DNA of 17,612 nucleotides from a virus: positions 64,001-81,612 of the IMG/VR virus record IMGVR_UViG_3300033121_002167. The stretch is one strand, 5' to 3'. A model generated the notes under the pieces. That model made no database searches. It was not told the DNA's origin and saw only the letters and a program-made list of their open reading frames with translations. Of the stretch, positions 2,983 to 17,612 are shown piece by piece (position 1 is the stretch's first letter; the number at the start of each line of letters is the position of its first letter). The position numbers and the translations under genes are program-made.

Positions 2983-3738
2983 CTACAAAATTACAAATCC
3001 ACCAACAATTGCAGACTCAGTAAAACTAGAACCGTGCGTATAAATACGTCTATTTCTATCGATACAACAACTACCACCTTTGTACTTCAGATCGCGCTCG
3101 GTACCAACTCTGTTTGACACAATGACATTTGCTCTTGTGTCTTCAACAAGCTCAACCCAGGCTGAATCTGGGTACCCATAGGCACCGCCCCAGTTCGTCA
3201 GAAGAGCAATCATGTCGACAGAGCCTTTGCTGTAAAATTTCTGCCCAGGCTTGTAAAAAGCGTACGATTCTCTGTAGTGATTCATTGCATCCCTGCAAAC
3301 TAGCGCTCCCAGCCGACCGACTGGCGTCACGACTAGTGCATGAAGGGCTTCTGAGGGCTGCGCCCAAATGTTGTCATTACCCCATAGGTTGCTTTTCTGC
3401 GAATTCCCTGCGAGGCCCGAGGGACCCACGATGGCCGCTGAGTTGTACAGCTTACCTTCATAGAGCTCCGGGTAGCCAAAGACAATGTAGCAGTTGTAAC
3501 GATTGGCAATTGGGATGAACGCTTCTGTCTGATACCCATCACGTTCCTGAGCACACTCCATTGCTTCACGAGGAGATCGCAACGCAAACCCAGAAGTGCA
3601 AAGCTCAGGCAGAACGATGACACGGGCACCTTTCGCCGCGGCTTCGAAAGCTAGTTCAGTAGCAACAGCCAGATTCTTCTGGACGTTGAGCAGCTCTGGG
3701 TTGAACTGCGCCGCGGCAACTATTGCTACGTCGTTCAT
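2983..3738 (-). CDS. Carbon-nitrogen hydrolase (nitrilase superfamily) protein, 251 aa.
   Basis: The catalytic triad context matches the family: VIVLPE (Glu), GKLYNSAAIV (Lys) and GALVCRDAMN (Cys nucleophile). It has the expected alpha-beta-beta-alpha length and the expected N-terminal strand VAIVAAAQFNP. Confidence 0.7.
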   Translation of the reverse strand: MNDVAIVAAAQFNPELLNVQKNLAVATELAFEAAAKGARVIVLPELCTSGFALRSPREAMECAQERDGYQTEAFIPIANRYNCYIVFGYPELYEGKLYNSAAIVGPSGLAGNSQKSNLWGNDNIWAQPSEALHALVVTPVGRLGALVCRDAMNHYRESYAFYKPGQKFYSKGSVDMIALLTNWGGAYGYPDSAWVELVEDTRANVIVSNRVGTERDLKYKGGSCCIDRNRRIYTHGSSFTESAIVGGFVIL

Positions 3739-5407: not shown

Positions 5408-5730
5408 AATTCGCCCTTGGGAGCTTCTGCTTGCGAGATGTTAGGATTGCCAAGCTTCGCGTCCGTCCACTTCCTACCGAAGTAAAGAGCAAGGATCGGA
5501 GAGAAGTAGCTGGCGCATGCAGCAACATCGAATGGACGGACATGAATGGGACCAAGCGTCTCAAACATGGAGAGCACGTAAGCCAACGTTGTAACCCAAA
5601 ACGATACGAAGACAAGAGTGACAGTGACGCTTCCGTAACCACGACTGTCACGAATCCAAATTCTTGATGGCGAGACTTCACTAGGATCATTAGATGGTGG
5701 CAAATTTTCATTTGCTGTATTGTCAGACAT
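5200..5730 (-). CDS. Small membrane protein with two predicted transmembrane helices (VTVTLVFVSFWVTTLAYVLSMF and FDVAACASYFSPILALYFG).
   Basis: I place the start at the ATG at 5730-5728 (MSDNTANENL...), which has GAGG 7-8 nt upstream. The track start at 5742 is a second in-frame ATG. The last ~70 codons run out of frame across the start of the 583-aa gene and look like overprinted, non-native sequence, so the true C-terminus is uncertain. Confidence 0.45.
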   Translation of the reverse strand: MSDNTANENLPPSNDPSEVSPSRIWIRDSRGYGSVTVTLVFVSFWVTTLAYVLSMFETLGPIHVRPFDVAACASYFSPILALYFGRKWTDAKLGNPNISQAEAPKGELWHKRSLSPGQHCASLYQSFLITRSSGKFALKRWMILLMSTQLLISQQYLLILAIRTTSQTTKLNFKLL

Positions 5731-6514
5731 GTTCAACCTCATTATTTTCAGATATTTCTTGTCGATGTTTTTTCCACCACAATTTCATTGTTTCGCTATG
5801 TGATTTCCGAAAATCAACATTTTCCCAACGTTCGCAAGCTGATTTTCGTCTCTGCTCAGCTAGTTCTGATTTTTCATATGATCGTTTAACGCCGGCACTA
5901 ATTCGCTTTCGAACATTTTCATCTTGACGTGATTTTTTAGACGCCTCCGTCAAATGAAGCAAGTGTTCAGATGAAACACGTCGACCACTCAATTTTCTAG
6001 AAATACGTTCGCGAACTTCAGGAGTTCGTGAAGCTTTGCTTGAAGCACTCAATTTTTGACGCGTTTGTTTTGAAACAACACGGTTACTTGCAACATCAGA
6101 AAGATGTTGACGAACACCTGGTTTGTTCATACCAATACGGGTACGTTCAGAAATAATTTTGCGAATTTCGCTACTCGGATTTGAAATTCCTTCGCCCCCA
6201 ATCGTTTTGTTACATCTGATGTCATCTAGCGACAAACGAAACGAAGGATTGAATGTATCAAGTTCTTTTATCAGATAAATTTCATAATCAAAAGCTTGAT
6301 TTTCGTCCAGTGTTTCAAAAACAATTTCTCTTCTCAATCCCAAATGATGAGAAACAAATTTGTGATGCTTGTTACGACGTTTGTTTTTAACACGAGAAGA
6401 ATTTCCTTTTCCAACATAAAACGCGCGAGGTTCAATTTCAGTTGTGTAATCGACATACACATACCACTTAGACTGAACCTCAGTTGGATCAGCGGCTTTC
6501 TTCTCTTCTTCCAT
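5723..6514 (-). CDS. GIY-YIG homing endonuclease with C-terminal NUMOD3-like repeats (Seg-like, free-standing), about 264 aa.
   Basis: KWYVYVDYTTEIEPRAFYVGKG gives GIY-x10-YIG. The conserved Arg/His (RVKNKRRNKHH), Glu (FDYEIYLIKEL) and Asn (TFNP) are present. At least five repeats of the NUMOD3 type occur (SEIRKIISERT, TRQKLSASS, PEVRERISRKLSG, ENVRKRISAGVKRS, SHSETMKLWWKKH). The gene is strongly AT-rich. The track ORF starts at a GTG at 6628, giving a spurious Cys/Trp-rich extension. The real start is most likely the ATG at 6514-6512, which has GAGG 9 nt upstream. Confidence 0.85.
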   Translation of the reverse strand: MEEEKKAADPTEVQSKWYVYVDYTTEIEPRAFYVGKGNSSRVKNKRRNKHHKFVSHHLGLRREIVFETLDENQAFDYEIYLIKELDTFNPSFRLSLDDIRCNKTIGGEGISNPSSEIRKIISERTRIGMNKPGVRQHLSDVASNRVVSKQTRQKLSASSKASRTPEVRERISRKLSGRRVSSEHLLHLTEASKKSRQDENVRKRISAGVKRSYEKSELAEQRRKSACERWENVDFRKSHSETMKLWWKKHRQEISENNEVEHV

Positions 6515-6549
6515 GTCGACAACCTCTGGTCCTAAATAGGCTGTACAGA
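5723..6549 (-). mobile_element. AT-rich homing-endonuclease island inserted between a membrane-protein gene and the coiled-coil/secreted protein gene.
   Basis: Composition drops to AT-rich exactly over the endonuclease ORF, with GC-normal flanks. Confidence 0.55.
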
Positions 6550-7044
6550 TCATTTGGTCGCATGCGATAGAGCAAAAACGGTGAGCACGGTGAAAACGGC
6601 GCCGCCAGCAAAACCACCAGCAGCCCACAGCATGGGATTGCTAGAGCTAGATGATTGCTTTCGAATCTCTTCGTTTAGCGCAGCAATCTCTTTTTCTTTT
6701 GCAACGATTGATGCACTTAGGATCTTCTTCTCAGCGTCAGTCGTCGCTTGAAGTTCTACGAGCTTGAACTGCGACTGTGCGGCAGCTTCAGCTTTCGCCT
6801 TGTCAACTTCGATCTTCACTTGATCTTTGGAAGAATTTAGCTGCACGATGATGCTTGCAACAGCTTTTGGCGATAGCAAAACACCGGTGTAAGGTGCTGG
6901 CTCACCCTTTTTCATAGGAGTCGTCACAGCACCAGGATCTGGTTCAGCAGATGGAACTGCTGGCACAGTCAACCCTTCGCATCGACCAGGGATTGCTGAA
7001 AAGAAGAACGTCAGAAACGTTACTAGCGTGATGAACTTTTTCAC
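6550..7044 (-). CDS. Secreted or membrane-anchored coiled-coil protein, 164 aa. It has an N-terminal signal-like hydrophobic segment (KKFITLVTFLTFFFSAIPGRC), a central coiled coil and a C-terminal transmembrane helix (MLWAAGGFAGGAVFTVLTVFAL). It may be a spanin-like lysis component.
   Basis: The start is a GTG at 7044-7042 with GGTGG 3 nt upstream, overlapping the TGA of the upstream gene as GTGA. There is no in-frame ATG until far downstream. The topology resembles unimolecular or outer-membrane spanins, but the lipobox is not canonical (PGRC). Confidence 0.5.
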   Translation of the reverse strand: MKKFITLVTFLTFFFSAIPGRCEGLTVPAVPSAEPDPGAVTTPMKKGEPAPYTGVLLSPKAVASIIVQLNSSKDQVKIEVDKAKAEAAAQSQFKLVELQATTDAEKKILSASIVAKEKEIAALNEEIRKQSSSSSNPMLWAAGGFAGGAVFTVLTVFALSHATK

Positions 7045-8039: not shown

Positions 8040-8598
8040 GAACTAAGACTGCTCCTCCTCCGCCGACGCCTCCATCACCTGCTCGATCAGCTGGCGGTGC
8101 AGTGAATTCATCTTCCATTTCATCCCTTGACTTACCGATCTCCATGCCATGCTCGTTGCGAAGCTGCTCTTTGAATGAATCAGCAACTGACTCATCGTAA
8201 TTCTTCGACAAGAAGTTTGACGCCCTACGCAAGATCGTATTTCTAACTTCTAGCAAGGAGTCGTAGTTGTCTATCAACCTGACAACGCCGTTGACAAAAG
8301 AGCCCACGTCGATGTCTTCAACAGTAAGCTTCTTTGGTTCATCGCTAGAATCATCACCCTTGTCGTCATCTTCACCAGCTTCAACGATTCGACGCACAGT
8401 CATTCGCCAATCGCGACCTTCGGTCTTTGCGGACTTTGCTTCTTTCTCATAGTCATTCAAGTAACGATCGACCTGAGAGTCTAGTGAATCTTCTCCCGGC
8501 TCTTCTGCTGGTGGCGCCGGCGCTTCGCCTTCTTCTCTGAGAATCTCTTCCCTTAGAACACGCCGAAGATCACCCAAGCGAACCTTAAAAGTCTTCAT
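8029..8598 (-). CDS. Hypothetical acidic protein, 189 aa (Glu/Asp-rich, Gly-run near the C-terminus).
   Basis: The ATG at 8598-8596 overlaps the TGA of the SOD-like gene in an ATGA arrangement. Confidence 0.55.
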   Translation of the reverse strand: MKTFKVRLGDLRRVLREEILREEGEAPAPPAEEPGEDSLDSQVDRYLNDYEKEAKSAKTEGRDWRMTVRRIVEAGEDDDKGDDSSDEPKKLTVEDIDVGSFVNGVVRLIDNYDSLLEVRNTILRRASNFLSKNYDESVADSFKEQLRNEHGMEIGKSRDEMEDEFTAPPADRAGDGGVGGGGAVLVHEI

Positions 8599-9311
8599 GA
8601 CTTCACCGCCACGCCGATTGCTTCAGCTCTCTTAAAACGATCTTCGCAAACTTCCCAATTGATCTCTCTCATCTGAGCGATCAAGTAGCTCTTCTTGTCG
8701 GTCAAGTAGTCTCTAGCGTATGCATGCTCCCACATGTCGACAACGATCACTGGGTAGAAGCCTAGTGGGATATCTCCACTGTGGTGGCTGATTGGAACGT
8801 TGATGTACTTCTTCAAGAAAGTGTGATATCCGCAAACAGCCCATCCATTTCCAGCAGCCATGGCACATGCGATGAAGTCACGTTGCCAATCTTCGAACGT
8901 TCCGAAGTCTCTCTGCAGCTTGATGTAAGCGATTGAATCCATCACGATCTCAGAATGAGGATCGTAGCAGTTCGCAAAGTACAGCTCGTGAAGCCACACA
9001 GCATTGAGGTTGTACGCTTCATCAAGCTTCAATGACCTGAAGTCACTGTGCTTTGAATTTGAAGCGCCCCTGTCAGCAGTGTCAAGCTGCGCTGAAACAT
9101 TGTTCAACGTATCAACGTACTCACGGTAAAGAGTTGTGTGCGCTTCTTTTGTCTTCTGCGAAACCATCTCGGAGACTTGCTTGAACGGCTTCGGTTCTGC
9201 AACGTAAGACTCGTTGATCTTTCCAACTTCTTTCACAGCAGCCGAGCGCGATAGCGCATCTCTGATCGTCTTATCAAGGTCTAGACCTTCTAGTATGTTC
9301 TTTTTGCTCAT
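8595..9311 (-). CDS. Fe/Mn superoxide dismutase-like protein, 238 aa, with a ~40-aa N-terminal extension.
   Basis: The C-terminal signature DMWEHAYARDY corresponds to the D-x-W-E-H-A-Y-Y motif that carries the Asp and His metal ligands. Other matches are GNGWAVCGY (GSGWxWL-like), NAVWLHELYF (NAAQxWNHtFyW-like, with His) and HTTLYREYVDTLNN (HHxxYVxxLN-like). The ATG has AAGGA 9 nt upstream. Confidence 0.65.
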   Translation of the reverse strand: MSKKNILEGLDLDKTIRDALSRSAAVKEVGKINESYVAEPKPFKQVSEMVSQKTKEAHTTLYREYVDTLNNVSAQLDTADRGASNSKHSDFRSLKLDEAYNLNAVWLHELYFANCYDPHSEIVMDSIAYIKLQRDFGTFEDWQRDFIACAMAAGNGWAVCGYHTFLKKYINVPISHHSGDIPLGFYPVIVVDMWEHAYARDYLTDKKSYLIAQMREINWEVCEDRFKRAEAIGVAVKS

Positions 9312-9609
9312 GATCTTTTCCTTGTAAGCTTAGCTCGTAATTCTTTTCAAGTTCTTCTGCATCAATCAGGAATTTTTCACCCTCTGGCGTCCTGAGTATG
9401 CAATCGTTAGGACCGACTGAATCCACTGTGTAGCGAATTCCACTGTTCTTGTGAAGAACTTTCAGCTCTGGAGCGATGATCATCTTCTCTTCTCCTTTGC
9501 CGATCTTTGCAGTCATCGCAACGTCGACGGTCTCCGTTAGAGACGCAACACGTGAGTCCCACTCTTCACGGAAGACTTCTATGATGTCCTTATCAGTAAG
9601 TGCTCTCAT
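9274..9609 (-). CDS. Hypothetical protein, 111 aa.
   Basis: The ATG at 9609-9607 overlaps the TGA of the dCMP deaminase gene (ATGA). It overlaps the next gene by 38 nt. Confidence 0.5.
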   Translation of the reverse strand: MRALTDKDIIEVFREEWDSRVASLTETVDVAMTAKIGKGEEKMIIAPELKVLHKNSGIRYTVDSVGPNDCILRTPEGEKFLIDAEELEKNYELSLQGKDHEQKEHTRRSRP

Positions 9610-10043
9610 GTTCTCGATGTAAGTATTGTGTCCGATGTTCTCATGACTTCAATACCAACTGATTGCAGCAAGACAAGACCTGACGAATCCCTGTACTGGA
9701 TGTCATACACGACCCTAGAGATTCCAGCGTTGATGATCATCTTGGCACACATCCGACACGGTGAATGAGTCACGTACATGTGCTTCTTCTTCGGAAAGTT
9801 ATAATCGAGCTTGATTATAGCGTTAGCCTCAGCATGCAAGAAACCGCTAAGACCAGGTTCGCTCGATTCTTTCTCGTGAGGTCCACCCTTGTAGTTCCCG
9901 TTGTACCCAATCGAGAGCATCTGCGTGTTATCGTCAGAAACGACGATCGCTCCCACTTTGAGAGCATCGTCGTACGATCTAAGAGAGATCGTCTTTGCTA
10001 CTGACATCCACGTTTCAGGCCACGGAACAGCGTTGTTGGTCAT
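9606..10043 (-). CDS. cd: Deoxycytidylate (dCMP) deaminase, zinc-dependent cytidine/dCMP deaminase family.
   Basis: HAEANAI (the zinc His plus catalytic Glu) and SPCRMCAKMIINAGI (the PCxxC zinc ligands). The track start at 10076 is TTG. I chose the ATG at 10043-10041, which overlaps the thymidine kinase TGA as ATGA (MTNNAVPWPETW...). Confidence 0.85.
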   Translation of the reverse strand: MTNNAVPWPETWMSVAKTISLRSYDDALKVGAIVVSDDNTQMLSIGYNGNYKGGPHEKESSEPGLSGFLHAEANAIIKLDYNFPKKKHMYVTHSPCRMCAKMIINAGISRVVYDIQYRDSSGLVLLQSVGIEVMRTSDTILTSRT

Positions 10044-10609
10044 GTTAGCACTATGAAAGGATGACATCGCAAGCAACGCGGCTCGTATAGCTCGTGCCCG
10101 CCAACTTCAAGCAACGTTTCATCTTCGCTCTTCTTGTACGTAAAATGAGCATCTTGCGAGCAGATCGTGCACACTGCTGAGCACTTCTCTATTGACGTTG
10201 CCCAAGGCAACATCTTTGTCACTTCATCGAACGGTTTGCCGTTGAATGCAGTGTCAAGCGTTGACACTATGATGTTGTATCCGTTCCTGTACAAGAACGT
10301 CAAAGCATCAGCAACGCCGTTGATCATGAAAGCTTCATCTACTGCGATGATGCTAATGTCGTTGTTCTGCTCTTCAAGAACTTTCGCAAGGATACCTTCT
10401 GCGTTATTGACAGTGACTGCATCGTGACGCCAACCGCCGTGCGTCACGATCTGAGACGTAGAGTAGCGATCATCTATCGCAGGCTTGAAAACTAGAGCGT
10501 TTCTCTTCTGGTACTTGCAACGCTCAAGCTCCATCAACAATCGAGATGATTTTGATGACCACATGGGTCCGACGTACATCACGAATGTTGGATTAGCTTG
10601 CTTGCTCAT
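10040..10609 (-). CDS. tk: Thymidine kinase (type II, Tdk-like), 189 aa.
   Basis: P-loop YVGPMWSSKSS, Walker B/acceptor region AVDEAFMI, and the C-terminal zinc motif CSAVCTICS...CLRCH. ATG start. Confidence 0.9.
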   Translation of the reverse strand: MSKQANPTFVMYVGPMWSSKSSRLLMELERCKYQKRNALVFKPAIDDRYSTSQIVTHGGWRHDAVTVNNAEGILAKVLEEQNNDISIIAVDEAFMINGVADALTFLYRNGYNIIVSTLDTAFNGKPFDEVTKMLPWATSIEKCSAVCTICSQDAHFTYKKSEDETLLEVGGHELYEPRCLRCHPFIVLT

Positions 10610-11363: not shown

Positions 11364-12023
11364 CTATTCAACCAAGTGCCAATGCTTTTGGTATACGTGC
11401 AAAGAACCAGCATGCCAAATCATGGGACCAACTTTGACGCCCAGATCGTGAGCAAGCTGCTTGTGAACGTAGTCTTGCCAGACGCGGTCGTTGCGATATC
11501 CATACAAGACATCGTTCGACCTCATGCGAACGTCAGCAACCAGCTCTCCATTTCTGACGAAGTACTGGACTGAATCAGTACAGATGAAGTCGCTCATCCC
11601 GCTACGGTTGTAATCTTTCCAGATCGAAGGACGCGTGTACACCATCTCTGCGCGGCGGCTTTCTGGAGCTCGACGAAGTTCAGCTAGAACGTTGCTGTAC
11701 TGATCGTGATTCTCAGGGCTCCAGATAAGATAACCATAGTTCGAGTTGATCTCACCGTTAGGTGTAGCGCATGCAACCCAAGCAGCAGGTGCACCGCCAG
11801 GGATATCATGAACGTTAAGAGACATAGACTTGTACCACTCGATCTCCCTAGCTGCGTAGTCCCTGTTCACGGTCCCAAAGATAGCTTCTTCATCCGCAAT
11901 GAACGTTGCACCTATGACCTCAATCATCTTGCAACCTGTTTTGTCGGTCACGTGCTCGCCGGATGCTTTTAGCTCACGGAACCAACTCCGAACATCGCTG
12001 ACTCTATGCTCAATTCGTATCAT
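11364..12023 (-). CDS. Deoxycytidylate 5-hydroxymethylase (T4 gp42-like, thymidylate-synthase fold), 219 aa.
   Basis: Blocks match T4 gp42 as I remember it: DKTGCKMIEVIGATFIADEE, REIEWYKSMSL, GEINSNYGYLIWS, ESRRAEMVYTRPSI, GMSDFICTDSVQYF (Cys nucleophile) and MRSNDVLYGYRNDRVWQDYV. The Asp in the RND motif, where thymidylate synthase has Asn, is the cytosine-specificity determinant. The C-terminal HAGSLHVYQKH matches the TS/CH GDAHIY region. Confidence 0.85.
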   Translation of the reverse strand: MIRIEHRVSDVRSWFRELKASGEHVTDKTGCKMIEVIGATFIADEEAIFGTVNRDYAAREIEWYKSMSLNVHDIPGGAPAAWVACATPNGEINSNYGYLIWSPENHDQYSNVLAELRRAPESRRAEMVYTRPSIWKDYNRSGMSDFICTDSVQYFVRNGELVADVRMRSNDVLYGYRNDRVWQDYVHKQLAHDLGVKVGPMIWHAGSLHVYQKHWHLVE

Positions 12024-12174
12024 TCGTCTTCATCTCCAGGTCCAGCACCTTGTCTTCTAGCGTTTGAATTCTCACCTTCATCTCATTGTGTGCCCTAATG
12101 TCAACGATCGACAGAACGATCGTGAACAGCAACAGCACCCATAGCATGAAGTGGACGTGATGATCTGATTTCAT
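12010..12174 (-). CDS. Unlisted small membrane protein, 54 aa (MKSDHHVHFMLWVLLLFTIVLSIVDIRAHNEMKVRIQTLEDKVLDLEMKTNDTN).
   Basis: It is not in the ORF track because it is under 60 aa. The ATG at 12174-12172 overlaps the epimerase TGA as TGATG. It has one clear transmembrane helix followed by a charged helix. It ends 14 nt inside the hydroxymethylase start and fills an otherwise 150-nt gap in a gapless operon. Confidence 0.45.
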   Translation of the reverse strand: MKSDHHVHFMLWVLLLFTIVLSIVDIRAHNEMKVRIQTLEDKVLDLEMKTNDTN

Positions 12175-13142
12175 CAGACGTTAAGCTTTAGGTTCTTTGC
12201 CCAGTCCCAATTGTTGTCGTACCAATCGCATGTGCGAGCGATACCTTCCCAAACAGGAACTTTTACGCTGTACGCAAGGTAAACTGATGCACCGCTGATG
12301 TTTGCTAGCGTTCGCTTCACATCACCTGCCCGTGTGGGCGCAACGTTGAGCTTGAACCCGCCGTAACGCTTCAGAAGGTAAAGAATGATGTCGTTGTTGG
12401 ATACTTCAGTTCCACATGCTACGTTGAATCGATGCGCTTCAGCAGATGGAAGCTGCGCTGTTGCGGCCTTCATGCATGCATCAACAACGTTGTCAACGTA
12501 ACACAAGTCTCTTGATTGAGAGCCGTCACCATCGAAGCGAAGCGGTTCACCCTTCTTGATAGCCGTCAACCACGCGGCGAGCGCAGTTGCGTACGGAGAA
12601 CCACCCAGCGCGTTGGGTCCAAAGACGTTGAAGAACCTCAAGGAGACAGAATCTAGACCGTAGAACGTCTTGTACAACGTCAAGTAATCTTCGATGATAG
12701 ATTTCTGAAGCGCGTACGGCGACTTGGGATTCTTCTCTTCGCTCTCATGCGTGGGTAGCTTAAGAGCGCCGCCGTACACTGAAGAAGATGAAGCAAAGAC
12801 GAACCGTGTGATGTTTCCTCTGCATGCTTCCAGCAACTTCAGCGTCTTCGTGACGTTTGCATCGTTCGTTTCAAACGGATGCTCCACAGAGTACGAAACT
12901 CTTGGAACAGCAGCAAGATGGATGACAACGTCAAACTCTTTGTCCCTGATCTTCTGAAGAACTGCTTCATCAGAAAAATCACACTTAAATTCACGAATTT
13001 CTCGAAGAGTTGAATCGCTCAAAAATTCTGCGTGCCCATTAGAAAAATCATCAGCACCAGTAACTGTCCAACCAGCAGCTACGCATGCTGCTGTCAAATT
13101 TGAACCAATGAACCCTGCGTAGCCAGTTATGAGGACTTTCAT
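12174..13142 (-). CDS. NAD-dependent nucleotide-sugar epimerase/dehydratase (extended SDR, UDP-glucose 4-epimerase-like), 322 aa.
   Basis: Rossmann motif VLITGYAGFIGSNL, the catalytic YALQK (YxxxK), and the Ser-rich ASSSSVYGG upstream of it. The length and domain order are typical of GalE/WbpP-like enzymes. Confidence 0.85.
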   Translation of the reverse strand: MKVLITGYAGFIGSNLTAACVAAGWTVTGADDFSNGHAEFLSDSTLREIREFKCDFSDEAVLQKIRDKEFDVVIHLAAVPRVSYSVEHPFETNDANVTKTLKLLEACRGNITRFVFASSSSVYGGALKLPTHESEEKNPKSPYALQKSIIEDYLTLYKTFYGLDSVSLRFFNVFGPNALGGSPYATALAAWLTAIKKGEPLRFDGDGSQSRDLCYVDNVVDACMKAATAQLPSAEAHRFNVACGTEVSNNDIILYLLKRYGGFKLNVAPTRAGDVKRTLANISGASVYLAYSVKVPVWEGIARTCDWYDNNWDWAKNLKLNV

Positions 13143-13226
13143 GTCTAGGTAAGACTATACCCACCTACAGGGCTAATGTACAGCGTGTTAGTCGACGTTG
13201 CAGAGCAAGTTCATCTTCCGCATTGC

Positions 13227-13469
13227 TTAAAGCGTCGTCACCTCGTAAGAGCACCGAGCTCTAACAGCATCACGGAGACGTTCACGAAGATCATTCATGT
13301 CGACGGTGTGAGTTCTCAGCTCGCTGAACTCATCGAGCAACTTGCTCAACACGTCTGGTGCATCAGAAAAGTCTGGCGAGCCCATGAAAGGGTGCCCTCC
13401 TGCATCTCGAGCCAGCTTAGAATATTCGAAATAATTGGTCAATGAGATACCGGTATATATTTCCCGCAA
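13227..13469 (-). pseudogene. Remnant of the native 3' end of the glycosyltransferase gene, displaced by the homing-endonuclease cassette.
   Basis: This ORF has a TTG start and a stop codon immediately upstream. Its translation REIYTGISLTNYFEYSKLARDAGGHPFMGSPDFSD...RCSYEVTTL aligns over its full length with the C-terminus of the 446-aa glycosyltransferase (RECTELGCVPLTLNCNEYARLLKLSSFPIYCNPDFSD...RCSYEETTL). The remnant is GC-rich like the host genome, whereas the glycosyltransferase's current 3' end is AT-rich like the endonuclease. Confidence 0.6.
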
Positions 13470-14205
13470 TTATTCCCTTAACTTGGCTAATACGAAGATC
13501 GTATTTCTTGGCAAGATCTTTTTGAGTATACAATCCAGTTTGATAATCACTTCTAAGATCATTTACTGTCGCTCGTAGATGATCATTTCTTTTGATTCTA
13601 GCTGCGGCTATTTTTTGTTTAACTTCAACTCTTTGTTGAACTTCTTTTTGCTTTATGGAAGCTTTCAATCTAAATTCATCACTTCTGAAGATTTCTCGCA
13701 AGTTCTCGATTCGTTGTTTTGCTTTTTCTTCATCACTAGCCCAATTTTTCTTAAGTGATGAAGAAATACGCTGTTTGGTTTCTTCTGTTTGATGACCACG
13801 CAATTTTCTTACTTTGCTTTTCATCTTAAGTCTAAAACTAGGATCCTTCCACAATGCTTTAAATCGATCACTTATCAATTTTTTCTGGTGTGCTGTAATA
13901 CCACGCACGCCCTCGCCACCAGAAGTAAGATTTAGCAACATTACGCCACTTTTCTTAAGAGACGAGATGGTTTCAATTTCGTGTGCGTATGAATCTTCTT
14001 CATTACTAGTGTGATAAACACACTTAAATTCAAACGCGTCTAGACCATAAGTTCGCATGTTCGCATACAAATGACTTCTACCCCTAAATTGACCCGTAGA
14101 ACCAAAATAACGATGTATTCGCCAGCGACAAGCTAGATCATTAGTTTTTCCGACATAAACTTCTGACGTAATCGTATTTGTAATAGTGTATACAAAGAAT
14201 CCCAT
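13417..14205 (-). CDS. GIY-YIG homing endonuclease with NUMOD3 motifs (Seg/I-TevI-like, free-standing), 262 aa.
   Basis: GFFVYTITNTITSEVYVGKT gives GIY-x9-YVG. Also present are RWRIH, YAHEIETISS (Glu) and LLNLTSGG (Asn). NUMOD3-type repeats include HQTEETKQRISSSLKKNW, the consensus GxxHSEETKxKIS. It is strongly AT-rich, has an ATG start and no ribosome-binding site. Confidence 0.9.
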   Translation of the reverse strand: MGFFVYTITNTITSEVYVGKTNDLACRWRIHRYFGSTGQFRGRSHLYANMRTYGLDAFEFKCVYHTSNEEDSYAHEIETISSLKKSGVMLLNLTSGGEGVRGITAHQKKLISDRFKALWKDPSFRLKMKSKVRKLRGHQTEETKQRISSSLKKNWASDEEKAKQRIENLREIFRSDEFRLKASIKQKEVQQRVEVKQKIAAARIKRNDHLRATVNDLRSDYQTGLYTQKDLAKKYDLRISQVKGIIAGNIYRYLIDQLFRIF

Positions 14206-14460
14206 GATCTAACTATAGTGGCACACATACTTTTACAATAGATCCATACGTTTCATCGAACTCAACGTTGTTTCTTCGTATGAACATCTTTGTTGAACGA
14301 CTGTTTTCAGTCTTTCATGTGACTTTTTACAATCATCAGTGCCAACATAATCGATCAGATCGCTAGCTTTATCAACAATGTCAGAAAAATCAGGATTGCA
14401 ATAAATTGGAAATGATGACAATTTAAGCAATCTTGCATATTCATTACAGTTCAATGTCAA
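13417..14460 (-). mobile_element. Homing-endonuclease cassette: the endonuclease gene plus a co-transferred AT-rich replacement 3' end of the glycosyltransferase gene.
   Basis: A contiguous AT-rich block of about 1 kb covers the glycosyltransferase's last ~75 codons and the endonuclease gene. The displaced GC-rich native 3' end lies just downstream at 13227..13469. Confidence 0.6.
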
Positions 14461-15564
14461 TGGAACACATCCCAATTCTGTGCATTCTCTAGCAGCCGTT
14501 CCGCCGTACGTGTCCTGATCGTACAACCCAACAGATATCTCAGCTCTGGAAGCGATGTACTTGAATTCATCCCTGTTAAGCGGGCCAGAGACAAGAGACA
14601 TGTAGCCGTGACGGCCGCAGCGATCTTGCAAGCTAGAATTAGAGATTTTCTGGCTGGGATTTCCAGCTATGACAATAAAGTCTTGGCGACGATTGTGAAG
14701 CTTTGGCAAGATGTCAAACATGAACTTGCCGCAGTTCGTGTAGTCGCTAGACACCCCTGCTTCACCGATACGGTTCGGGACAAAGATGATCTTCTTGCCA
14801 GCTGATTGCAGCTTCTCGACCAGGTTGACATCAAACCTAAGATTGTCGAAATTGACCGGCGATGTGATCTCTTCTCGAGAGTACCCATCATCCCACGGTG
14901 AAGACTTTTCGAGGATCTTTTGGACAACTTCATCTCTGTAAAGCTTCCTGGCTTCAACTTCAAACTCTGCCAACGCAGATTCACACTGCCAGAAGTTCCA
15001 ATCGGCTTTCATCGCTGCTTCGCATTGACCGAGCCACAGCGATGCTTCAGCTGGAAACTTTGGACATGATGGCACATCCACGAAGTGGGAATGTACGAAA
15101 AACTTGGGTTGGTATCCACCAACAACATGGAACATCGCCTTGAAAGCTCTTAGATGCATTGGATCGTTGATGTAGACTGCATCCCACTTGGGTGCTCGGC
15201 TCAACTTCTGCATCCCGAGATTTAGACCGACAGCTAGACCCGTCCAGTCAAAATCATAACGAGTCACAAGAGCATTTCCGATGATGTTGTGCTCAAAGAA
15301 CGCTAGACGATTGTCGCCGTCTGCGCCGTAACGCTCCCAAAGATCTGGGTATACATCCCAAGGATCAGTTACAACTTGTCTCTTTCTGCCGTCATCACCA
15401 AGCTGTGGGATCATCACTGTGATGTGCAACTCTGGGTTCAGCTGAAGCATCACCCTTACGCGACCCATGACCATCTGAAAGCCCGAATCTGCTTCCAAGA
15501 TGAAGTTTCCCTTCGTGTCATAATTTGACAACTGTGTCTCTATCAAAAGCCGTTTTTGTCCCAT
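14233..15564 (-). CDS. GT-B fold glycosyltransferase (GT4-like C-terminal domain), about 443 aa. It is a candidate DNA hmC glycosyltransferase.
   Basis: The C-terminal region YDQDTYGGTAARECTELGCVPL matches the GT-B/GT4 E-x7-E nucleotide-sugar-binding region (…EAMACGCPVI). The track start at 15573 is TTG. The real ATG is at 15564-15562 (MGQKRLL...) with AAGGA 11 nt upstream. The last ~75 codons are AT-rich and have been allele-replaced. Confidence 0.6.
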   Translation of the reverse strand: MGQKRLLIETQLSNYDTKGNFILEADSGFQMVMGRVRVMLQLNPELHITVMIPQLGDDGRKRQVVTDPWDVYPDLWERYGADGDNRLAFFEHNIIGNALVTRYDFDWTGLAVGLNLGMQKLSRAPKWDAVYINDPMHLRAFKAMFHVVGGYQPKFFVHSHFVDVPSCPKFPAEASLWLGQCEAAMKADWNFWQCESALAEFEVEARKLYRDEVVQKILEKSSPWDDGYSREEITSPVNFDNLRFDVNLVEKLQSAGKKIIFVPNRIGEAGVSSDYTNCGKFMFDILPKLHNRRQDFIVIAGNPSQKISNSSLQDRCGRHGYMSLVSGPLNRDEFKYIASRAEISVGLYDQDTYGGTAARECTELGCVPLTLNCNEYARLLKLSSFPIYCNPDFSDIVDKASDLIDYVGTDDCKKSHERLKTVVQQRCSYEETTLSSMKRMDLL

Positions 15565-15569
15565 TATAA

Positions 15570-15926
15570 TCAATGTCCTTTTCTGCCCGGATTGCTCTGC
15601 TTTCTGTACTCTTGGTGTTCTGCGTCGCAGTGAGCCTTGGCTTGATCGAACATCCGACCAACCATTGACTTCAACAGATTCTCACCATAATCAGAAGCAA
15701 TCTCTTCTCTGATTTGATCAACAGTATGTTGAACGCATGCTTCACGATCGTACGAACCATCTAGTTCATCAAAAGTCCATGACGCTGGAGCCTTAATCCT
15801 TGTTGAAGCACGACCGGTCTTGAAGAATATGTGCCCATTTGTCCATCCTATCGACTCGGGAACGCACTCTTCGCGGCCATCGAGCATAGCATAATGCAGC
15901 TCGATCCAAATTTTGCTTCTGCTCAT
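15570..15926 (-). CDS. Hypothetical protein, 118 aa.
   Basis: ATG start overlapping the upstream TGA (ATGA). No recognisable motif. Confidence 0.55.
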   Translation of the reverse strand: MSRSKIWIELHYAMLDGREECVPESIGWTNGHIFFKTGRASTRIKAPASWTFDELDGSYDREACVQHTVDQIREEIASDYGENLLKSMVGRMFDQAKAHCDAEHQEYRKQSNPGRKGH

Positions 15927-16441
15927 CTTTTCAACACCTTTATCTTTTCAATCGAAGCCTCTGAAAGCCTCCACTCAGGTTTCTTCCAGTAACGTTGATC
16001 GCAGATTGGTTTGCCGCCATCTTCAAGGAGCCACAGAGCGTACGTGTACTCGTAGAGCGTCAATGCAACGATGCCGTCAGTGTAAACTAGCGCATGTACC
16101 TCACCCAACGTGGCTCTAACCTCTGCCTCGTCAAAAGTTTCGAGCGTTAGATTTTGCTCTTCAACGTCAGACGAAATCATGGTAGCATAGTCTGACACGT
16201 GACCTATCTTCAGAGGTCCAATGTACTCAACGTTAACAGGGAACTTGTAATCTGGATGATCCCCATGCTCGTGTTCAAACATGTTCCCGTCAGCTTTGAT
16301 GCAACCAACAGGCAGCTCGTTTGGGCAGTAAAACTTGCCTCCAGCTTCTATTGCGTTGGCTATGCCGCAATCCCAGCATCTATTCACGCACGTTGGAATT
16401 TCGATCGAACACCCTGGACATGGTTTAGTCTTCGTCGTCAT
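15923..16441 (-). CDS. Hypothetical protein with an N-terminal Cys-rich zinc-ribbon-like region (CPGC...CVNRCWDC...C), 172 aa.
   Basis: ATG start. It is ATGA-coupled to the downstream gene. Multiple CxxC pairs occur in the first 50 aa. Confidence 0.55.
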   Translation of the reverse strand: MTTKTKPCPGCSIEIPTCVNRCWDCGIANAIEAGGKFYCPNELPVGCIKADGNMFEHEHGDHPDYKFPVNVEYIGPLKIGHVSDYATMISSDVEEQNLTLETFDEAEVRATLGEVHALVYTDGIVALTLYEYTYALWLLEDGGKPICDQRYWKKPEWRLSEASIEKIKVLKR

Positions 16442-16727
16442 CGCAATCCGGTGAAGCTGTGATCAAGTTTGGTATGCGACGTGGTGTTGTTAGATCATGA
16501 GCAGCAATTGAGTAAAATGCGCTGTTGACGTATTCATCGGCAGCTTGAACGTTGCCAGAAGATATCAGCCCATGAATGTTGATCAGATCAGTAGCCGTTG
16601 TCATCCTTTCAGAGCTCATCACCCTGATCGCAGCAATGTCTCGTCGTATGTCTCCGATGATGAAACCAATCACGAAGACGGGTACAACAGCTAGAACGTA
16701 CGTTAGAACAGCTATGACAATGCTCAT
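16425..16727 (-). CDS. Small membrane protein, 100 aa, with an N-terminal transmembrane helix (SIVIAVLTYVLAVVPVFVIGFIIG) and an acidic tail (DCDDDED).
   Basis: The ATG at 16727-16725 overlaps the TGA of the methyltransferase gene (ATGA). Confidence 0.5.
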   Translation of the reverse strand: MSIVIAVLTYVLAVVPVFVIGFIIGDIRRDIAAIRVMSSERMTTATDLINIHGLISSGNVQAADEYVNSAFYSIAAHDLTTPRRIPNLITASPDCDDDED

Positions 16728-17407
16728 TGGGAAGCCTTTACGTAAACTCGAGTGTTCTTCCTGTAGAAAGAAGCGAACGCAAAGCGACCCTTCTTGTTGC
16801 GCCCTGGAACTCTCAAGTTGGAGAACTTTGATGTCAGAACGGGATCTACAACATATCCTCTCTTCAGCATCTTTCCCTCAACGACAGAGACTGGTTGGCA
16901 GTTCACGTGGTGACGTCCGAACTGCGGCAGCCAATCAGGTCCACCCGGGACGAATTCGCCCAAACGATTGATCTTTCCTTGGTTGGGATCGTAAGTGCCA
17001 CGACCAGACGCAACGCCAAAGACAACGATGCGAGGATTGGGCAGCAGCATGCAGTCCAAAAAGTTGCCTTCATGAACGTTGCAAACGTGCTCCATCGCTT
17101 CAAGCGACATGACAACGTCACGTGGGCCAACATCAAGCGTGCTAGGCTTCACAGTTCCGATGTCTATCTTTCTGAAGTTTGATTGGTTGACTCTCAATGC
17201 TGTCATGTCAGCATAACCATCGCAGCACCAGATCGGGATGATGCCTTCAAGGGGTTCGAGCCAATCACCCTGGCCGCAGCCAAAATCGGCGATCGACGTG
17301 GCTTTCAAATCCTTCAAGACAAAGTCCTTCCATGCTGGAAGGCCGCGAGCGAAGTACTTCCTACCGTCGTCAAAAAATTCAGAATCGTAGTTTATGATCT
17401 TTGCCAT
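16724..17407 (-). CDS. Class I SAM-dependent methyltransferase, 227 aa. It is not a Dam/Dcm-type DNA methyltransferase and is more likely a small-molecule or sugar O-methyltransferase.
   Basis: Motif I is IADFGCGQGDW. An acidic residue ends beta2 (IWCCDGYAD). Motif II/III is DVVMSLEAMEHV. There is no [DNS]PP[YFW] or PCQ/ENV motif. The ATG overlaps the upstream TAA as TAATG. Confidence 0.7.
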   Translation of the reverse strand: MAKIINYDSEFFDDGRKYFARGLPAWKDFVLKDLKATSIADFGCGQGDWLEPLEGIIPIWCCDGYADMTALRVNQSNFRKIDIGTVKPSTLDVGPRDVVMSLEAMEHVCNVHEGNFLDCMLLPNPRIVVFGVASGRGTYDPNQGKINRLGEFVPGGPDWLPQFGRHHVNCQPVSVVEGKMLKRGYVVDPVLTSKFSNLRVPGRNKKGRFAFASFYRKNTRVYVKASQ

Positions 17408-17612
17408 TATAATCCCTTGATGAATGCAAGAACCTCTCGCATCTCACGCTCTAGATCTTCATCATCAACGTTAAGCTTCAGAAGCTTCGTCTTCGTCCAT
17501 GATGCAAAAGTGAAGTACTCATCGTGAAGCTTTTGAAGAACCTCAGCGTTGATAGTTGGATCCAAGTCATCTTCAATGCCGACGTACGATGATCGATGAC
17601 ACAGAACGACGC
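17407..17612 (-). CDS. Hypothetical protein; the 5' end lies beyond the window. The C-terminal 68 aa read ...VVLCHRSSYVGIEDDLDPTINAEVLQKLHDEYFTFASWTKTKLLKLNVDDEDLEREMREVLAFIKGL.
   Basis: The frame was hand-translated. It is open from the window edge to the TAA at 17409-17407, which overlaps the methyltransferase ATG. The + strand ORF 17183..17527 in the track is its antisense shadow. Confidence 0.5.
   Translation of the reverse strand, partial: VVLCHRSSYVGIEDDLDPTINAEVLQKLHDEYFTFASWTKTKLLKLNVDDEDLEREMREVLAFIKGL

Follow-up and report, generated by a model that had tools for sequence, protein, structure and literature searches.

Described systems of cytosine glycosylation and the locus studied here

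Which restriction, CRISPR and type IV systems are able to act on a phage depends on the sugars that its cytosines carry, and enzymes that glycosylate cytosine also serve 5-hydroxymethylcytosine (5hmC or hmC) labelling and epigenetic sequencing chemistry. Here we analyse a gene module in 17,612 nucleotides of viral DNA (IMG/VR virus record IMGVR_UViG_3300033121_002167, positions 64,001 to 81,612; this whole stretch is hereafter called the window), which encodes a thymidylate synthase (TS) homolog, a predicted glycosyltransferase (GT) and a nucleotide-sugar epimerase, and we compare it with the closest described systems. With the T-even phages it has in common the predicted synthesis of hydroxymethyl-deoxycytidine monophosphate (hm-dCMP) before replication, by an enzyme 51% identical to that of T4 and with the same active-site signature, a GT-B gene not far from that of the hydroxymethylase (gene 42 and beta-gt are direct neighbours in T4), and the presence of dCMP deaminase and thymidine kinase in the same genome. 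Unlike in T4, however, no sequence similarity of the transferase to AGT or BGT could be detected and it is closer to GT4 enzymes, a dedicated nucleoside diphosphate (NDP)-sugar 4-epimerase belongs to the conserved module, and this region does not relate the phage to the Straboviridae (the polymerase is of the DnaE type, and related contigs reach ~370 kb).

A second comparison is with GTs of metaviromic phages that act on 5hmC in an epimerase-dependent manner, for which hexose (Hex), N-acetylhexosamine (HexNAc) and hexuronic acid (HexA) products were shown experimentally (bioRxiv 10.1101/2023.12.21.572611). The adjacent epimerase and GT of subclass II in that study, by Pyle et al., have their counterpart in 42 of the 46 related loci defined below, and in the window only an inserted homing endonuclease separates the two genes. 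In contrast, their 5hmC is made after replication by a C5-methyltransferase and a TET-like dioxygenase, whereas here a ThyA homolog would act before it; neither the window nor the Pfam-labelled neighbourhoods show a C5-cytosine methyltransferase or 5mYOX/TET dioxygenase, and a ThyA-type hydroxymethylase is found instead. Their GT-B enzymes, moreover, all belong to subclass III and not to the epimerase-paired subclass II, while the GT of the window is GT-B/GT4-like. The metagenome mining in the same study noted GT-B matches often neighbouring ThyS and epimerase genes, which were left uncharacterised there.

The third comparison is with the 5-hydroxycytosine (5hoC) pathways of RB69, DLP3, HY126 and RL38J1 (PMC13326640), of which RB69, DLP3 and RL38J1 attach arabinose or galactose/glucose to 5hoC from a phage-encoded sugar supply. 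Here too a TS homolog, an adjacent GT-B/GT4-like predicted DNA GT and a candidate nucleotide kinase are clustered together with phage genes for NDP-sugar supply, and the top structural matches of the transferases overlap (2gej and 6kih are common to both, and BshA appears as 3mbo there and as 6n1x here). Their TS homologs, however, carry D169N and make 5-hydroxy-dCMP, whereas the enzyme of the window has D169, and their sugar supply consists either of arabinose-5-P isomerase, kinase and uridylyltransferase or of UDP-galactopyranose mutase, and not of a 4-epimerase of the short-chain dehydrogenase/reductase (SDR) type. An earlier note on this DNA, made from the sequence alone, had taken the pathway to be of an undescribed kind, which does not hold, since epimerase-dependent 5hmC glycosylation was already shown (bioRxiv 10.1101/2023.12.21.572611) and cytosine sugar diversity in phages with TS homologs is documented (PMC13326640). 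The module would rather be a known anti-restriction strategy that combines a T4-type pre-replicative route, an epimerase-coupled family of GT4-like transferases and an optional HEN1-like enzyme; in the literature searched we found no paper on this combination of genes.

A T4-type hydroxymethylase paired with a phage-restricted glycosyltransferase family

We consider it likely that this uncultured large phage converts cytosine to 5hmC before replication and that the module then glycosylates the hmC in its DNA, the sugar most likely being other than glucose. To place the module we gathered 7 loci from viral contigs and 80 from metagenomes, and added several contigs found through exact matches of their proteins (loci are numbered L001 onwards where they need to be told apart). 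All neighbourhood counts refer to the 46 deduplicated loci with at least 4.5 kb of sequence downstream of the transferase, in which a TS homolog was counted when on the same strand and at most 4.5 kb from the transferase, and a thymidine kinase when at most 8 kb from it. A TS homolog lies downstream of the transferase in all 46, a pairing which, across independent loci, is far beyond chance. The sugar hypermodification of hmC proposed in the earlier note is therefore strongly backed by synteny.

The 219-aa TS homolog is, judged by its residues, a T4-type dCMP hydroxymethylase (hm-dCMP synthase). Its full-length identity to T4 gp42 is 51%, compared with ~25% to the 5-hydroxy-dCMP synthase of HY126, and it scores above the cutoff of PF00303. 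When aligned with T4 gp42, the HY126 enzyme and E. coli ThyA (whose numbering is used, and whose sequence as aligned reproduces the known motifs), it shows C146, L143D, D169 and N177D, the same as T4, and has Asp at position 169 (MRSND) where HY126 has Asn (MRSQN). It is this signature that points to the T4 type. The same four residues recur in 47/47 recovered TS homologs, even in those only 24-30% identical to that of the window, and D169N is found in none. Many 'gp42-like' enzymes produce 5-hydroxy-dCMP in place of hm-dCMP, and D169N is their mark (PMC13326640, 2026); with D169 kept, we rejected the window enzyme as a 5-hydroxy-dCMP synthase of the RB69 gp48, DLP3 gp80 or HY126 type. The gp42-like assignment made earlier is thus upheld, and the catalytic Cys and the specificity Asp, whose loss the earlier note had named as refuting its proposal, are both retained on proper alignment.

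For the large transferase, structure comparison bore out the predicted GT-B fold, a two-Rossmann-domain architecture superposable on GT4 enzymes, with PimA (2gej), sucrose-phosphate synthase (6kih) and BshA (6n1x) among the best matches. WaaG and PglH-like enzymes are also structural neighbours, and so is T4 AGT, a DNA glycosyltransferase of the kind with which the earlier note had proposed a comparison. Pfam, NCBIfam and PHROG gave no match at E <= 0.1, which leaves the protein outside the Glycos_transf_1/GT4 sequence models, and tblastn against 50,697 phage records found none either, while blastn of the module against phage records returned only short gp42-like matches. No relative appeared in 185,579 bacterial and archaeal species genomes scanned with two peptide patterns, a scan that was not exhaustive, and the family profile recruits only 152 clusters among 1.84 billion proteins. 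On these comparisons the transferase is a sequence-isolated, previously unnamed and phage-restricted GT family coupled to predicted T4-type hm-dCMP synthases, and the module belongs to an abundant environmental clade of large phages that has no relative among the phage records searched. In L095 (1-7134), a 7-kb contig with no TS homolog, the profile recovered a remote transferase relative (E = 4e-32) that is surrounded by genes of nucleotide metabolism, with a P-loop kinase-like gene on one side and Nuc_deoxyrib_tr (nucleoside deoxyribosyltransferase-like), Peptidase_U32 and dCMP deaminase genes on the other. A different base-modification route may feed the related transferase there. For comparison, a collagenase-like protease fold is given for RB69p050, in the RB69 arabinosyl-5hoC cluster (PMC13326640, Table 1).

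An epimerase for the proposed sugar supply

The 322-aa protein is well supported by its sequence as a member of the NDP-sugar 4-epimerase class, as the earlier note had proposed, through its PF01370 and phrog_540 matches, its closest PDB chains (WbgU and WbpP at 1e-47, compared with 1e-23 for E. coli GalE) and its motifs GYAGFIGS (the GxxGxxG NAD site), SSSSVYG and YALQK. The GxxGxxG motif, S118-120, Y143, K147 and the gatekeeper T278 are invariant in 9/9 loci compared. The gatekeeper is a small Thr, where WbgU and WbpP have Ser and E. coli GalE has Tyr; in the GalE/WbpP literature a small residue at this place is the pattern of enzymes accepting N-acetylated or otherwise bulky sugars linked to uridine diphosphate (UDP). 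Among the NCBIfam equivalogs the protein stays below the cutoffs of both TviC (163 vs 760 bits) and GalE (152 vs 262 bits), and because no equivalog cutoff is reached its substrate class is not fixed by family membership. The homology search suggested in the earlier note therefore placed the enzyme class and not the substrate class, and between the sugars listed there (galactose, GalNAc, a pentose or a di-sugar) sequence cannot choose. The pairing of the transferase with a UDP-HexNAc-type 4-epimerase makes a clonable candidate for a new hmC glycan.

The epimerase is present in 42/46 loci, and the other 4 are without any SDR. L034/L035, L040, L050 and L067/L068 have a different SDR downstream of the transferase, or two SDRs, and the replacing proteins are 30-41% identical to the epimerase of the window, some of them scoring comparably on a GDP-mannose dehydratase-type model. 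Since another SDR replaces or joins the epimerase in some subclades, the sugar would vary within the clade, which suggests that sugar supply diversifies there.

Proposed pathway and the place of the methyltransferase

We propose that the gp42-type enzyme converts dCMP to hm-dCMP, a step well supported by sequence, and that the P-loop kinase-like protein together with host kinases would then give the triphosphate hm-dCTP for incorporation by the phage polymerase, with dCMP deaminase and thymidine kinase presumably balancing the supply of thymidine triphosphate (dTTP), as in T4. The SDR 4-epimerase, whose class is supported, would invert C4 of a UDP-sugar that the host has in abundance (UDP-Glc, UDP-GlcNAc or a uronic form). 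Fold and invariant synteny suggest that the GT-B/GT4-like transferase puts this sugar on the hydroxymethyl group of hmC in duplex DNA, and the transfer would probably be retaining (alpha linkage), since the closest structural relatives are retaining GT4 enzymes. A HEN1-like, metal-dependent methyltransferase might conceivably add a further tailoring in about one third of the clade, to which this phage belongs. Modified in this way, the phage DNA would be protected from restriction and other DNA-targeting defences.

The methyltransferase is a class I enzyme without DNA-methyltransferase features, as the earlier note had it, and of the solved structures only Hen1 from bacteria and plants is related to it in sequence (E = 0.0025 to 0.057 with the family profile; single-sequence PDB searches of this protein and of the HslV-like protein were not significant, so family profiles were needed). 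Its DFGCG S-adenosylmethionine (SAM) motif is identical to that of HEN1, the HEN1 metal motif E-x-x-E-H is aligned with E103, E106 and H107, and the pair H166/H167, which is invariant, follows ~60 residues downstream with HEN1-like spacing, in a sequence alignment whose whole-profile E is only 0.0025. It is quite possible, if somewhat short of probable, that this one enzyme is a HEN1-type RNA 3'-terminal ribose 2'-O-methyltransferase, which would shield the tRNA or other RNA ends of phage or host from ribotoxins or exonucleases and would have nothing to do with the DNA sugar. Such a role agrees with Hen1 being the sole solved relative at sequence level, in alignments that span both DFGCG and E-x-x-E-H, with a CCA-adding/PolyA_pol-like gene nearby in some related loci, and with the gene being missing from most transferase-bearing loci (it occurs in about one third of the related loci). 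The family of the window differs from HEN1 and bacterial Hen1, however, in a conserved insertion of its own (135-172), in a slot that adjoins a DNA-modification transferase and in an overall match that is marginal; among the genes listed for L010, L012 and L094 no Pnkp or RNA ligase partner was seen, in a search that was not exhaustive.

The O-methylated sugar suggested in the earlier note is thus left unproven, given the patchy occurrence of the gene and its closest match being an RNA ribose 2'-O-methyltransferase. That the third of the clade with the HEN1-like enzyme carries an hmC sugar both C4-epimerised (a galacto-configured Hex, HexNAc or HexA) and O-methylated we regard as rather unlikely. 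In such a case the metal-dependent methyltransferase might grip a cis-diol of the DNA-linked sugar much as HEN1 does with the 2',3'-diol of a ribose. The literature searched gave no report of methylated glycans on DNA and, if true, this would possibly be the first O-methylated DNA sugar.

Alternative roles for the module

Several observations weigh against glycosylation of hmC with a non-glucose sugar. Neither a dCTPase nor a second glycosyltransferase was seen in the 17.6-kb window, the kinase assignment comes from a marginal Pfam match (AAA_28, 28.8 bits vs a cutoff of 27), the top structural matches of the transferase are enzymes acting on small molecules or lipids, and it matches no sequence model of known DNA glycosyltransferases. 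The 4 loci without an epimerase imply, in addition, that the transferase is not strictly dependent on a phage epimerase, and since the epimerase can work in both directions, glucose may still be what is transferred.

The last two points, together with the presence of glucosyltransferases (sucrose-phosphate synthase, WaaG, T4 AGT) among the structural neighbours of the transferase, would be compatible with plain T4-like glucosyl-hmC, the epimerase only replenishing UDP-glucose from UDP-galactose or balancing host pools and the methyltransferase being unrelated. We find this improbable, since the retention of the epimerase in 42/46 loci, its catalytic residues unchanged, argues for a specific need, the enzyme is nearer to UDP-HexNAc(A) 4-epimerases than to GalE and has a small gatekeeper, and in the published epimerase/GT pairs of phages the GT was epimerase-dependent on 5hmC even though the E. 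coli host already makes UDP-Glc (bioRxiv 10.1101/2023.12.21.572611).

Least likely of all, and very improbable in view of the 46/46 coupling of a hydroxymethylase-type TS homolog immediately downstream of a transferase whose family was not found in the cellular genomes scanned, is a role of epimerase, transferase and methyltransferase in reshaping an envelope polysaccharide of the host or in glycosylating virion proteins (superinfection exclusion, receptor masking), with gene order only placing them beside the hydroxymethylase. In its favour, WbgU, WbpP and TviC, the characterised enzymes nearest to the epimerase, and the fold relatives of the transferase (BshA, PimA, WaaG, PglH-like) do act in envelope or small-molecule glycosylation, and cyanophage clusters of epimerase, GT and O-methyltransferase were interpreted so (PMC7824862). 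Against it, the module has only one GT, no genes for a flippase, polymerase, acyltransferase or lipid carrier are close by, it lies between DnaE polymerase and nucleotide-metabolism genes, and the remote transferase relative is likewise embedded in nucleotide metabolism. Homology to envelope enzymes, which the earlier note had named as a refutation, extends only to fold and family, which any UDP-sugar enzyme would share, and is absent from the pathway context.

Gene layout, mosaic spots and neighbouring genes

Every gene in the window is on the minus strand, and the interval 11364-17407 holds nine ORFs and one gene fragment (Table 1), a map that independent gene prediction on this contig in a public assembly (Logan SRR32380191) reproduces. 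The genes are transcribed in the order methyltransferase, 100-aa protein, zinc ribbon, 118-aa protein, transferase, GIY-YIG endonuclease, fragment, epimerase, 54-aa protein and TS homolog. The single-strand layout and the overlapping TAATG and ATGA junctions described in the earlier note are present as described, next to other overlaps of 1 to 17 nt, and so is the gene remnant. Its count of seven genes has to be raised to nine, the GIY-YIG endonuclease having been absent from it, and the module is not gapless, since gaps of 27 nt and 84 nt flank the endonuclease and the remnant. The transferase is indeed a large GT-B protein, of 443 aa from its ATG; the 446 aa given earlier are reached only with an upstream TTG. 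Nor does the module end at 17407, because it runs on into a kinase-like gene cut by the edge of the window.

Table 1. Genes and gene fragments of the module and its surroundings, with positions in the window.
Feature	Position	Strand	Evidence and remarks
C-terminus of an AAA_28 P-loop kinase-like protein	17407..17612	minus	candidate nucleotide kinase of the pathway; frame open to the window edge
Class I SAM methyltransferase, 227 aa	16724..17407	minus	HEN1-like motifs; accessory gene
100-aa protein with N-terminal hydrophobic helix	16425..16727	minus	no family match; only in the window lineage, L001 and L094
Zinc-ribbon protein, 172 aa (CPGC...CWDC)	15923..16441	minus	weak HscB_4_cys match
118-aa protein	15570..15926	minus	translation; no family match; lineage-specific
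GT-B (GT4-like) glycosyltransferase, predicted hmC DNA glycosyltransferase	14233..15564	minus	443 aa from ATG
GIY-YIG homing endonuclease, 262 aa	13417..14205	minus	PF01541 4e-7, phrog_314 5e-26
Pseudogene fragment, diverged glycosyltransferase 3' end, 80 codons	13227..13469	minus	local alignment
Extended-SDR NDP-sugar 4-epimerase, 322 aa	12174..13142	minus	PF01370 7e-53, phrog_540 1e-67
Single-pass membrane mini-protein, 54 aa	12010..12174	minus	translation; lineage-specific, only in the window, L001 and L094
T4 gp42-type dCMP hydroxymethylase, 219 aa	11364..12023	minus	PF00303 4e-18, phrog_160 3e-51
HslV-family N-terminal-Thr hydrolase, 185 aa	10629..11186	minus	phrog_1040 1.5e-15
Thymidine kinase	10040..10609	minus	PF00265 1e-41
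dCMP deaminase	9606..10076	minus	PF00383 2e-20; probable ATG start giving 145 aa, as in the gene call

The kinase-like gene is complete in the 98-100% identical L001 (6659-7204), where it encodes 181 aa starting VGPDMTGKT, and most loci keep its C-terminal part upstream of the transferase; the ORF list had given a 52-aa ORF at 17407-17612, which is really the end of this gene. Homologs of the zinc-ribbon protein, at 34-49% identity, occupy the same slot in many loci.

The remnant aligns to transferase residues 371-434 and ends RCSYEVTTL, compared with RCSYEETTL in the transferase, and tblastn matched it to transferase C-termini in other loci, so that it would be a diverged copy of the transferase 3' end beside a mobile endonuclease. 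The GIY-YIG endonuclease itself lies between transferase and epimerase only in the lineage of the window, L001 and L094. Together, the endonuclease and the duplicate of the last ~64 transferase codons look like the footprint of endonuclease-driven gene conversion. Two further homing-endonuclease-like genes lie at 2110-2973 (DUF7487/phrog_3339) and 5723-6628 (a GIY-YIG-like phrog_314 member), and an extra DUF7487 copy lies on the other strand in L001, shortly upstream of the transferase. The GC fraction is ~0.47 across the window generally, and a dip to 0.35 coincides with the DUF7487 gene at 2110-2973. In L001 (410-5643) and L012 (1-4749) the gene of the DnaE-type polymerase is split by intein-like and endonuclease-like ORFs.

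In relatives, the DnaE-type polymerase is encoded a few kb upstream of the module. The co-oriented HslV-like, thymidine kinase and dCMP deaminase genes, which the earlier note had associated with the pathway, are indeed conserved along with the module, thymidine kinase in 41/46 loci and dCMP deaminase in 44/46. The HslV-like gene follows the hydroxymethylase across most of the clade, either directly or, as in the window, after one small ORF; its protein has an invariant Thr2 and a profile match to HslV in the PDB (2.7e-4), and no HslU-like partner was seen in the window. We regard this hydrolase as a conserved neighbour that nothing ties to the modification chemistry. PADLOC matched none of seven proteins to a defence system, Rfam and tRNA scans of the window gave no match, and a promoter and terminator scan of the window gave no signal above the shuffled expectation.

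Between thymidine kinase and dCMP deaminase, a PolyA_pol/CCA-adding-like gene is present in L010 (16462-17670), L012 (14901-16031) and L001 (15481-16800), and the window is without it. The deaminase region of L001 is 42% identical to that of the window despite ~99% identity elsewhere, which indicates that this spot is mosaic. Further downstream, the window encodes a 238-aa protein (8595-9311) with a Fe/Mn superoxide dismutase C-terminal domain (PF02777 4.7e-18), whose gene is kept a few kb downstream of the module in most loci extending that far, and a carbon-nitrogen hydrolase of the nitrilase superfamily (2983-3738; PF00795 9e-26).

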